Shown here: positions 1,630-56,620 of the stretch, piece by piece
Layout of the letters: each line of letters begins with the position of its first letter
How positions within the stretch are numbered: the first letter of the stretch is position 1
Assembly (NCBI GenBank): GCA_951406725.2
Contig: OX597816.1
Location: 66,526,001-66,590,000 of the forward strand
Direction: 5' to 3'
DNA: 64,000 bases
From: Octopus vulgaris
Lineage: Eukaryota
Position numbers and translations under genes: made by a program
Notes under the pieces: model-generated
Told to the model about the DNA's origin: nothing
The model's database searches: none
Seen by the model: the letters and a program-made list of their open reading frames with translations, nothing else

Positions 1630-1785
1630 ATTTTTCTTCTCTCCGCTTGTTTCTTCGTGTTCATTTCTGTTGAAGAGTGTAAGTTTGAAACATAAAGACT
1701 TTCTCACCTACCCGAGCATCAAACTAATAAACCTGCTTGTTGTTTATACACTTATCTTCGTCTTTTGTTTTTCTGTAAATTTCAA
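1630..1785 (+). mobile_element. Family 2-related repeat with degenerate hammerhead (1664-1697)
   Basis: TTT CTGTTGA A GAGT gta AGTTT GAAA CA T A AAG, then gagcatcaaactaata...tcttcgtcttttgttttt shared with the 56460-56620 copy. Confidence 0.5.
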
Positions 1786-2344
1786 CTATACACACACACA
1801 TACACACAGATATATATATATATATATATATAAAATATATATATGTAGACAATGGGCTTGCTTCCACACAGGTTTTGTTTACCAAATCCACTCATAAGAC
1901 ACTGGGTCAGCCCAGGGTTATAGTAGACACTTACACAAGGTGCCATGCAATGGGATTGAGCCCTAAACCTCACAGTTGCAAAGCAAGCTTCTTAATTATG
2001 CAGCCATATCATCACCCTATCTGTTACCCTTCTTGATTCCTGTCACCTTTAGCTCATCACTAAGCACTATACCCAGTGCTTTCTTCCCAGAACATTGCCC
2101 CTCTGGAAGCTTTCCTTGCTCATGTGTTGCCTGCAGGTGTTGACCTGTCACAGCGGAACTGGAACAATAGCAGTATCAGTCTCAGAAGGTACATGATTCA
2201 TCAGGAATGTTTTGCCTATGTCACCAGGAGCATCAACAATGAACAATTCCCTTTTGTCAATTTCAATAATTTACTTGATGCCATGATAGGCCTGCTTTTG
2301 CTCGCTCACCAATGAAGAATTGAATGACCAAGATTTGATATCAA

Positions 2345-2790
2345 TCATCATCATCATCATCATCGTTTAACGTCTGCTTTCCATGCTAGCATGGGTTGGA
2401 CGATTTTGACTGAGGGCTGGTGAACCAGACGGCTGCACCAGGCTCCAATCTTGATTTGGCAGAGTTTCTACAGCTGGATGTCCTTCCTAATGCGAACCAC
2501 TCCGAGAGTGTAGTGGGTGCTTTTTACGTGCCACCGGCACAGGGGCCAGTCAGGCGGTACTGGCAATGACCTTGCTCGAATCCTTTTACACATGCCACCA
2601 GCACAGGTGCCAGTAAGGCGACATTGGTAACGATCACACTCGAATGGTGCCACTGGCACGGAAGCCAGTTGGCTGTTCTGGCAACGATCACGCTCGGATG
2701 GTGCTCTTGGCACCCTACTAGCACGAGCACATGTGCCAGTAAGGCGATGCTGGTAACGATCACGCTCGAATGGTGCCCTTTAAGTGCCAC
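2345..2790 (-). mobile_element. Retroposon family C with (ATG)n tail and internal tandem subrepeats (representative copy)
   Basis: catcatcgtttaacgtc.gctttccatgctagcatgggttggacg block. Copies at about 29460-29910, 32176-32515, 42100-42395, 44030-44232, 44850-45075, 48700-48925, 49060-49345, 51040-51195, 57510-57965, 59450-59985. Confidence 0.85.
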
Positions 2791-2799
2791 TGGCATCAA

Positions 2800-53398: not shown

Positions 53399-53612
53399 CC
53401 CTTTAGCATTTAAACTGGCCATGTTTGACCCAAATATTCTACTAATTCTATGTTCAAACTGACCAGACCCTGCCTCTCACATCTACACTACAATGTCATT
53501 CTAAAAATATACAATCACATCACTGAAATCTCAAAGCCACAAGACAGTCCATGATTAATTCAAAAACAATGTGAATAAATAAACATTAATTTTGATAGAG
53601 AAACCTGAAGGG
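53399..53612. mobile_element. piggyBac-type MITE
   Basis: TTAA|CCCTT...AAGGG|TTAA termini. A similar partial element starts near 21200. Confidence 0.65.
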
Positions 53613-56459
53613 TTAAACAACAATAAAAGCAACCTCATCATCTATTTATCCATTAATAGTGCTGGAAGCCAAGATTGTGGTTGGTCCTGTCTCCAGTGAT
53701 ATAAGCTTGTAGCTACTTTTAAGTTAATCAGTAGTAGACAGTGGCCATGCTCTTTGGAGCCTCGCCCTCATTAGTGAGATCAATGTGGCTGATGTCTAGC
53801 TTCTACAGATAAGGGTCAATGTCAATGTCAATTTAAGAATGTTATTTTAAAGCAAGGCATGGCTTATTCAACCAGGCAAAATAAGTCCTAGTCAAAATGA
53901 ATAAGGTCAAAGTGATACAGAAAACTATGCACAGGGAGTAAACTGGGGGTCTAATTCGAAGAGACCAAATGTCAAGGTGGTGGTGGGCAGAGATGGGATA
54001 AGCCTACCACCTAAATTTTGACCAATAGAATAAAACATGTAGATAGGTGGCAACAATATGCCTTTCCTTTTACCTGTTTCAATCATTAGATTACGGCCTT
54101 GCTGGGGCACCGCCATGAAGAATTTTTAGTTGAATGAATCAACCCCAGTATGTTTTCTTGGTACTTATTCTATCAAACTCTTTTGCCAAACTGCTAAGTT
54201 ATGGTGACATAAACATAGGAACATCATTTGTCAAGCAATCGTGGAGCATGAACACATAGACACACACACATGGCAAAATTCTTTCAGTTTCCACCTACCA
54301 AATCCACTCACAAGGCTTTGGTCAGCCTGAGGCTATAGTAGAAGACACTTGCCCAAGGTGCCATGCAGTGAGGTGGGGGGGGGGGGGGGGCTGCACCAGG
54401 GACCATATATTTGGGAGACAAGCTTCTTTATTTCAAGATTTTGCCATAAAGGCATTACATAGGTGGCGAGCTGGCAGAAACGTTAGCACGCCGGGCGAAA
54501 TGCATAGCCGTATTTCGTCTGCTGTTAAGTTCTGAGTTCAAATTCCACCGAGGTTGACTTTGCCTTTCATCCTTTTGGGGTCGATTAAATAAGTACCAGT
54601 TACGCACTGGGGTTGATATAATCGATTTAATCCATTTGTCTGTCCTTGTTTGTCCTCTCTGTGTTTAGCCCCTTGTGGGCAGTAAAGAAATAGGCATTAC
54701 ATAGAGGGAGAAGCTTGCGGGCTGGACATAAACATTAATGAGATGAGTGATGGAAAGGATGGTATTAATGGGGGAAGACAAAAGATGCCTGCCGATCTTT
54801 TGCTTCTCTGAAAGAAACAAGCTTCTTACCACACAGCTACACCTGTGTTACTAACAATATAATGTGTATTATTGTTAATAATAAGAATTAAAGCAACACA
54901 TCCTGGATATAACTATTTTCCCTATCAGCTCTAAATCTGAAAACAAGGGAACTAAAGCTAACAAGGCAGTACAAAGCCGATGAAGGAGTTTCTATGCAGT
55001 TGTTTAACTTGTTAGAAATAGCTGCTAAATTCCCTTCAATCACACTATCATTGTAGTTTTGGGCTACCTACACATAAGGAAGAAATAAACAATGAAATGC
55101 TTGCTTTTGATCACATGTCTGCTCAACTAGGGCTAACCGGGACTAAACAACACCAACAGTAATAAATAAAGGAAAACTCCTTGATAGCTGATGTTTCTTC
55201 CACAACAAAATCCTCCTTCTAAACACACACAAGCAATCATGCACAACATAAACTTCATTCATTTTAACCAATGCTGATGTTCTAAACCTGCAGAAATTTC
55301 AAAGAAAAACAAACTAATCTAAAACAATCAGCTTCTGTTAATTTCATCACTCCAAGGAGGGCTCTCTTGTACGCTTTAGGCCAATCAGCTTTACTCTGGA
55401 GTTAATGGTGAGGAGGGAGAAAAACATGATACACAAACATACATATGTACATACACACATATAAAAAGAGAGAGACACGCATACATAAGTGGGAAAAAAC
55501 CCCTCAAAAAACAAGCATAATAAAATCCTCCAAAAAGAAAAAAAAATCAACAGCAACCCAAACTATTGTAAGCACTTGTAGCTTAAGTTTTTGTCACGTT
55601 GCCAAGCATCTCCTTATCGGTACAGCGATTGTCAGTTACAAAATCTCAGTATCTGACAAGCACTATGATTTGTTTTACTGGAATCATTCATTCTTCCTGT
55701 CTGATTTAAGGGAAACAATTTTGGAAATGAAAGCCACTCAAAAATCCTTACCAATTCCCTTGCTTAATTTTCAATAGAACTGCATACCATTCTTACTACT
55801 CTACTAAGATTAAATGAAATAGCCTTCACTTCTCTGAACATGATCTCTAACTATTTTCATAAGAGCCAATGGAGAAAAATTTATGCAATGAATTGACACA
55901 CTAGAAAGAGCAGGCCCAAATCTGCCTAAGATCATACCCTACTTTCTTAAAAATAAGAAAGAAAGCAGACGTTTGATAAATTTGCCCTAGATGCACAATG
56001 CTTGAAAACATTAATGGTGGAGTAGCTAGTGGTTGCTCAACCTGTTAGAAACAGTAACCAATTCTTTCTCAAATCACACTTTACTACATTAAAAGAAGAG
56101 AAACCTACTCTGACATGGAATAGTGCAGTCTACATTTTCCTGCATATAGGGAAAAATGGGAAGCTAAGCCTGCAATACTTTTCATCATGGGTCTACTTCA
56201 TTAAGGCTGATCTGGGATTAAAACAACAATCTTGCTTGTATGATGATGATGATGCTCATTTACAATCAGCACATGATGTCTAGACAAGAGTACATACACA
56301 TAACATATATAGGATGCTATATCAGAGACATTTGTAGTATGCAGTGAGACTGAACCCAAGAGTACATGGTTGGGAAGCTAGCTTATTAATCACACACAGA
56401 TATACCTGTGCCTATATATATATATATATATATATATATATATCACAGAAAGGATGACC

Positions 56460-56620
56460 TCCCTTCGTATATAGGGAAGGTTTACGAAAAAAACAAAAGA
56501 CGAAGACAGGTGGTGTACAAAAACAGATGTATTAGTATAATGCTCAGGAACAGAAAAAGTCTTTTACGTTTCGAGCCAACGCTCTTCTATAGAAAGGAAC
56601 ACAGAAAAAACAAGGAGAGT
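56460..56620 (-). mobile_element. Family 2-related repeat with degenerate hammerhead (56561-56596)
   Basis: CTTT CTATAGA A GAGC gttg GCTC GAAA CG T A AAAG. Stems intact, core positions 5-6 altered; downstream ...CCTGAGCAT..TACTAATAC resembles 36808-36890. Confidence 0.6.

Follow-up and report, generated by a model that had tools for sequence, protein, structure and literature searches.

Hammerhead ribozyme motifs crowded into 64 kb of the Octopus vulgaris genome are very probably passengers in dead insertions of Penelope-like elements

Why do nine hammerhead ribozyme motifs crowd into a single stretch of the Octopus vulgaris genome? The 64-kb stretch that we analyzed, hereafter the window, spans positions 66,526,001 to 66,590,000 of contig OX597816.1 (assembly GCA_951406725.2), has a GC content of 36.9% and carries numerous microsatellites. 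The original prediction described nine motifs in type I order, each with one extra nucleotide after A9, assigned them to about four families that share one design, and called these families Penelope-derived. We conclude that the motifs are very probably passengers in dead, short insertions that descend from several lineages of Penelope-like elements (PLEs), and that these copies are probably silent. Their shared design is not new, but is the consensus published in 2014 for PLE hammerheads.

All nine motifs were located and parsed base by base, and the window was scanned with a strict descriptor that accepts any Watson-Crick 3:8 pair, makes the inserted nucleotide optional, and calls for a stem III that is palindromic or at least 2 bp long. 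Grouping of the motifs yields four families, as had been estimated, with three motifs in family A, three in B, two in C and one in D.

1664 to 1697, plus strand: family A hammerhead, decayed, with core CUGUUGA and a non-palindromic stem III (ACAU), in an element of about 1617-1793 that is followed by a TA/CA microsatellite
36888 to 36922, minus strand: family A hammerhead with an intact core, 4-bp stem I, 4-bp stem II and palindrome ACGU
56561 to 56596, minus strand: family A hammerhead with its core decayed to CUAUAGA (two core changes), in an element at 56445-56619 between two (TA)n runs
28293 to 28343, minus strand: family B hammerhead with a G3:C8 core and a G12-to-A change, predicted to be dead
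28366 to 28416, plus strand: family B hammerhead with an intact G3:C8 core, 7-bp stem I, 5-bp stem II and palindrome AAUAUU
30223 to 30273, plus strand: family B hammerhead in a second, independent insertion (element 30209-30351), with G3:C8 and one mismatch in stem II
38043 to 38088, minus strand: family C hammerhead, intact by parse and strict descriptor
38378 to 38423, plus strand: family C hammerhead, intact by parse and strict descriptor
41624 to 41703, minus strand: family D hammerhead with an exact core, 7-bp stem I, a long stem II with C.U at 10.1:11.1, and the 8-nt palindrome ACAAUUGU

An unpaired nucleotide lies between positions 9 and 10.1 in every motif, and stem III is palindromic in all but 1664, both as first described. 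The 10.1:11.1 pair is G-C in seven motifs, G.U in 1664 and a C.U mismatch in 41625. An intact type I core (CUGANGA...GAAA...UH, positions 3 and 8 forming a Watson-Crick pair) is present in six motifs, namely the five strict matches and 41625; the five that combine an intact core with a closed stem II have core positions 28373+, 30230+, 36918-, 38083- and 38383+. Because 28293/28366 and 38043/38378 are inverted-arm pairs within one insertion each, the nine motifs correspond to seven insertions. Thus the predicted tally holds for motifs, but three of them (28293, 56561 and 1664) have broken cores, one carries the 10.1:11.1 mismatch, and only seven insertions are involved.

The published consensus for PLE hammerheads, CUGANGAH-G...C-GAAA-palindrome-UH, includes the nucleotide between 9 and 10.1, the G10.1:C11.1 pair and the palindromic stem III (PMC4209133). 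The same paper describes many unrelated hammerhead families per genome, chiefly as solo copies, opposite-strand motif pairs 100-700 bp apart, and low cleavage activity; the part of its supplement that was searched holds no octopus entry. The likeness among families A to D is therefore to be expected, because animal PLE hammerheads share this design.

The most direct evidence of PLE origin comes from family B, whose larger insertion continues into the start of a predicted open reading frame (ORF).

28198 to 28570: family B insertion with a 13-bp target duplication (28198-28210 and 28558-28570) and a tail of about 57 nt on the right arm only
28466 to 28558, plus strand: predicted PLE ORF start, with an ATG 56 nt past the cut site and a frame that continues without a stop to the tail's end

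The inverted arms of this insertion (28209-28350 and 28359-28500) differ at 7 of 142 sites, and words as long as the duplication are common to only 7 of 1500 random flank pairs. Motif 28366 is predicted to be cut after 28409, and the tail encodes an Octopus protein from its start to about codon 30. The 30-residue peptide has two matches among 1.84 billion proteins, the better being O. bimaculoides P0121 (phmmer E 8e-6), whose N-terminus is the family B peptide. P0122 (E 9.5e-4) is a repeat peptide and was set aside. Longer relatives of P0121 are P0123 from O. sinensis and P0124 and P0125 from O. vulgaris. The N-terminus of P0123 is identical to the window frame at 28 of 33 residues (E 9e-14), and its residues 74-223 match P0125 at 79% over 151 amino acids. 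P0125 in turn contains PKF, RWR, DKS, KDHK, PxRP and DVVSLY, in that order. GxKF/Y, RWK and DKG/DKT are named as PLE motifs in PMC8557442, and KDHK, TDKS and DVVSLY occur in the PLE proteins of its supplement. From this chain, which runs from the window to P0123 to P0125 at the level of motifs, we read family B as the probable pseudo-long terminal repeat (pseudo-LTR) and ORF start of a PLE. Other searches were less informative: P0121 is merely a 0.75 lead in a protein-cluster atlas, P0124 lies nearest to unnamed rotifer clusters in which DUF8422 occurs on 16-41% of members, and a 96-residue frame spanning both family B arms has no match among longer proteins.

The second family B insertion (30209-30351) stops after ORF codon 9, and the three family B copies stop near codons 9-11 or 31. 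The inverted arm and one-sided tail were not seen in this second copy. The two independent copies share a 5′ start about 20 nt before the core. It was also observed that the 5′ end of the 30209-30351 unit is complementary to its 3′ end over about 6 bp, closing the entire fold (z -1.8).

All three family B copies, and thus two independent insertions, carry GUGAACA with its G3:C8 pair. Lünse et al. 2017 reportedly surveyed about 150,000 hammerhead variants. That survey excepted, no natural G3:C8 is described in the parts of the hammerhead literature examined, where the natural covariation reported is U3:A8, and it is uncertain whether the family B core represents a previously unpublished variant. 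An engineered C3G/G8C double mutant partly regains cleavage (PMC11167929). If a PLE lineage keeps G3:C8 along with a conserved core, this would constitute natural evidence of selection on the 3:8 pair, and hence on catalysis.

Family C exhibits the same insertion anatomy, together with a feature absent from the original prediction: a tRNA-like head that recurs in a diverged relative.

37957 to 38481: family C insertion with a 12-bp target duplication (37957-37968 and 38470-38481) and a tail of about 30 nt on the left arm only
38238 to 38292, plus strand: 5′-terminal tRNA-like head of the family C unit, with the A box and B box of RNA polymerase III
7515 to 7735, minus strand: diverged family C relative with an A/B-box-like head and a remnant of stem I and CUGA, stems II and III being deleted

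The arms of family C meet head to head and differ at 19 of 226 sites, and words as long as its duplication are likewise common to 7 of 1500 random flank pairs. The relative at 7515-7735, a tenth remnant that the original prediction lacked, contains the family C 3′ region and a short inverted 3′ arm (7685-7730). PLE insertions are known to carry an inverted, 5′-truncated copy and, at one end, a tail of 30-40 bp (PMC8557442). Both marks are found in families B and C, and an inverted 3′ arm is found in the 7515-7735 relative and in family D, whose element (41466-41856) ends in a 43-nt inverted copy of its own 3′ end (41814-41856). Neither mark was seen in the three copies of family A, which are 64-74% identical to each other (1664 versus 56561, 72% over 235 nt; 36888 versus 56561, 64% over 149 nt). 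The stem I of 56561 differs from that of 36888 by a compensatory change of G-C to C-G. The predicted descent from Penelope is supported directly for family B by the ORF N-terminus, through insertion anatomy for C and D, and through motif design and (TA)n context for A; for families A, C and D we infer a PLE origin.

It is reasonable to propose how such copies arise. A PLE RNA would end in a pseudo-LTR, in which a minimal type I hammerhead is followed by the start of the ORF of the next unit. The PLE protein would nick AT-rich DNA, and reverse transcription would begin at one of two internal sites, presumably just downstream of the ribozyme. The resulting copy would be tailed or tailless and would often lie beside a second copy, inverted and 5′-truncated. 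Because even the shortest copies would retain the ribozyme, hammerheads would accumulate while ORFs do not. In an active tandem transcript, two motifs may pair via their palindromic stems III; the resulting cleavage would be weak and probably protein-assisted. In this scheme, the anatomy and the family B ORF link come from the window, and the priming, tail and dimer mechanisms are drawn from the literature. Cleavage in the PLE Poseidon depends on the PLE protein, and insertion in vitro does not require cleavage (PMC11167929); given this dispensability, selection on the 3:8 pair would bear on the role of PLE hammerheads.

The copies now in the genome are probably silent. Folding predictions indicate that a homodimeric double hammerhead is compatible with pairing in eight of the nine motifs. 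Cross-family dimers would form stems I of merely 0-2 bp, and the inverted arms are predicted to fold as hairpins of -218 to -372 kcal/mol; we base the expectation of silence on these two points. The only pairs from the same family on the same strand are 28373/30230, which is antisense to the host gene VGLL4 (see below), and 36918/56592, whose members are 20 kb apart and include one dead core. With the substitution rate of 0.0036 per million years given in PMC13282606, arm divergence suggests rough ages of about 12 million years for family C and about 7 million years for family B.

Several observations weigh against a PLE origin or weaken the chain that leads to it. No reverse transcriptase (RT) or GIY-YIG domain was found among the 296 window frames of at least 55 amino acids (low-complexity frames excluded). 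P0125 has neither a Pfam RT match nor a match to a solved structure in PDB, and its AlphaFold model is unusable (predicted local distance difference test score of 33), so that its identity as a PLE protein rests on motifs. Searches of P0125 against phages and related loci also gave no match, and no endonuclease is seen in it because the protein ends just past RT motif A. The ORF link passes through gene models, one of which, P0123, is fused to a methyltransferase domain; this fusion is probably a gene-prediction chimera. Families A, C and D show no ORF link, in that three-frame translations, with no protein search made, contain no frame that begins with ATG and stays open as far as the end of the element. 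There is no clear target duplication at the family A copies, the second family B copy or family D, and none was found at 7515-7735. Finally, the double-hammerhead fold is not the minimum-energy dimer in any of the six motifs folded.

The head of family C raises the question of what moved it. By the consensus for the A and B boxes, two A-plus-B-box matches occur in the window against 0.03 expected, and the family C plus arm is one of them. The opposite arm begins with a more decayed copy of the head. When the head of the 7515-7735 relative was aligned to the two arms, 0 and 1 of 2000 shuffles scored as high. The presence of a tRNA-like head in two independent insertions suggests that family C may be a parasite of PLEs resembling a short interspersed nuclear element (SINE), presumably a non-autonomous element driven by RNA polymerase III. 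The searched portions of the PLE, SINE and octopus literature contain no report of a PLE-mobilized tRNA SINE.

An alternative, which we consider unlikely, is that the head is incidental, having been captured beside a PLE end as a fragment of an ordinary SINE. SINEs make up 11.7% of the Octopus genome, the pattern is seen in two insertions only, ARAGORN (0 tRNAs) and Rfam do not call the head a tRNA, and its cloverleaf folding is no better than that of shuffled sequences. However, both arms begin about 10 nt or less from the A box within a single target duplication, and the independent, diverged insertion at 7515-7735 repeats the order of head, stem I and 3′ end. If family C is indeed a PLE-borne SINE, then PLE machinery rather than that of long interspersed nuclear elements mobilizes a SINE with a polymerase III head and a PLE hammerhead end. 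Such a unit, with its tRNA-like head and the insertion marks of a PLE, would show which 3′ sequences suffice for PLE mobilization, and its recognition would reclassify some of the 1,279 O. vulgaris families that are listed as "unclassified SINE".

Three other features of these loci are recorded here. The family C junction (38225-38245) has a short palindrome in both arms, as snap-back or template-switch priming predicts. The lack of a hammerhead in the 7515-7735 relative suggests that ribozyme loss is possible, either before or after insertion. A 185-nt palindromic element (7330-7514) that resembles a miniature inverted-repeat transposable element abuts this remnant.

The elements might instead be monomers of non-LTR retrozymes, which are tandem hammerhead repeats that make circular RNAs, and not direct PLE remnants. 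We regard this as improbable. The units in the window are short, mostly non-coding and hammerhead-bearing; likewise, non-LTR retrozymes are short non-autonomous hammerhead repeats related to PLE ends (PMC7229834; bioRxiv 10.64898/2026.07.22.740005), are argued to stem from PLE pseudo-LTRs, and include solo copies. In contrast, none of the seven insertions has a head-to-tail tandem array, the motifs are of the minimal PLE type whereas retrozymes have canonical type I motifs, and family B continues into an ORF start.

Most of the motifs lie within or near one host gene, which invites the further question of whether the host has kept any of them.

24036 to 40529, minus strand: host gene VGLL4 (Tondu-domain cofactor), with coding exons at 40053-40529, at 32703-32822, within 28855-28989, and at 24036-24305

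Across 85% of its length as query, the minus-strand frame at 24036-24344 matches a VGLL4-type protein of Octopus sinensis at 100%. Four exons of this protein were mapped within 24036-40529, and its residues 1-81 have no match anywhere in the window. Exon 40053-40529 encodes long runs of Asn, His, Gln and Ser, which the O. sinensis protein also has. Six motifs reside within mapped VGLL4 introns, 41625 and 56561 are probably in an upstream intron, and 1664 is downstream of the last coding exon.

It seems very improbable to us that the host retained some copies in VGLL4 introns to serve as regulatory ribozymes, for example through dimerization in the pre-mRNA. Five motifs do occupy the sense strand in known or probable introns, and two of these, 36888 and 38043, are intact, approximately 1.2 kb apart, and have ACGU in common. 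However, the stem I strands of 36888 and 38043 would form only 1 and 0 bp with each other, and cross-family dimers in VGLL4 pre-mRNA were rejected on the basis of stem I. Furthermore, 38043 is buried in a 496-nt hairpin, the cores of 28293 and 56561 are broken, and the other four motifs are antisense to VGLL4 or outside its coding span.

The original prediction also called for a comparison with shuffled sequence. When run on the window with 40 dinucleotide shuffles of 1-kb blocks, the strict descriptor found five matches versus a shuffle mean of 0.225 and maximum of 2. All five matches carry the A9 insertion and the palindrome, although the descriptor demanded neither, and the matches fall into repeat families. 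Relaxed descriptors gave 5 versus 0.4, 7 versus 1.4, and 11 versus 3.5 matches (15 shuffles each), and 56592 was the sole credible motif gained. When families A, B and C were sought as exact patterns, metagenome contigs and viral contigs gave no matches; prokaryote genomes gave 0, 0 and 1, respectively, the single match being inside a bacterial coding gene and judged to be chance. Thus, although relaxed settings yield 1.4-3.5 matches per shuffled window and one exact match did fall by chance in a bacterial gene, the notion that the motifs are chance matches in AT-rich repetitive DNA can be set aside as almost certainly wrong, and is refuted for the five strict motifs, given the strict count, the undemanded features, the grouping into families and the compensatory stem I change in family A.

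How common might such elements be? The seven in the window occupy 1914 of 64000 bp (3.0%). Scaling to 2.8 Gb gives about 310,000 copies (Poisson 95% interval 120,000-630,000) from the seven insertions, or 175,000 (48,000-450,000) from the four insertions with strict motifs, but these values overstate abundance because they derive from a single window that was chosen for its richness. A large class, as the original prediction proposed, is plausible. At least 20 sequencing runs contain part of one stretch, none of those listed has half of its words or is on record as RNA, and they carry no weight here. Expansion of the Penelope family in coleoids is already known (PMC8967140), and PLEs are reported to make up 6.83% of O. 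vulgaris, in 190 families (PMC13282606). The suggestion that ribozyme-bearing repeats are an under-annotated class therefore probably fails in terms of base pairs, because the annotated PLE fraction already exceeds the 3.0% in the window. The part that concerns the ribozymes fares better: no Rfam hammerhead family appears among the best 150 of 166 window matches, or in two focused scans, and PLE hammerheads may be under-annotated in octopus. In giant squid, 235 Rfam hammerheads have been reported.

We tentatively put forward the possibility, which we do not regard as the probable outcome, that the octopus genome carries at least 100,000 PLE-type minimal hammerheads, including a lineage fixed for G3:C8 and a PLE-mobilized SINE family. 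If true, this number would exceed any per-genome count of minimal hammerheads in the portions of the literature compared. If the density holds, octopus would offer an exceptionally rich natural collection of hammerhead variants to which Rfam is blind.

The window also holds other repeats. The commonest interspersed one is a SINE-like family (D13), whose 11 copies in 1921-61233 resemble its reference copy at 65-95%. At 39648-39980, beside a VGLL4 exon, lies a SINE-like element of another kind, whose tRNA-type head has clear A and B boxes. An abundant repeat that ends in (GAT)n and contains internal tandem units of about 65 nt is found at 2360-2780, 32300-32530, 44030-44250, 44850-45090, 48700-49370 and 59460-59990. 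Close inverted pairs at 48698-49294 and 59500-59983 were rejected as hammerhead elements, since they belong to this repeat and have no descriptor match. Further mobile-element fragments (707-994, 10716-11025, 13590-13871 and 24584-25051) have weak Pfam matches to Mos1-type helix-turn-helix and zf-RVT domains, and mariner-like and Tigger-like frames were recognized by eye.

Among known systems, the hammerheads of metazoan PLE pseudo-LTRs (PMC4209133) are the most similar in design. They have the same type I topology, short stem I, unpaired nucleotide between 9 and 10.1, G10.1:C11.1 pair and palindromic minimal stem III, and they too occur in many families, as solo copies and as opposite-strand pairs. 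Their 3:8 pair covaries to U3:A8, whereas G3:C8 is present in no alignment row compared. If typical, the density in the window (5 intact motifs per 64 kb) would far exceed that of the approximately 9,000 motifs reported per Xenopus genome.

Poseidon of Anolis carolinensis (PMC11167929) likewise places a hammerhead by the ORF start, has a tail inside the ORF and inserts into AT-rich targets, and its two priming sites run parallel to the two end zones of family B. In contrast, the Poseidon ORF begins at stem II and its core is C3:G8, whereas the family B ATG lies 56 nt after the cut site and the core is a natural G3:C8.

The closest precedent for family C is schistosome Sm-alpha which, with Sj-alpha, is a short non-coding retroposon whose polymerase III-type promoter is followed by a hammerhead (reviewed in PMC6765202). 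The schistosome elements form tandem repeats from which the ribozyme releases monomers. Family C differs from Sm-alpha, as described there, in its minimal PLE-type motif, inverted arm, one-sided tail and 12-bp duplication.

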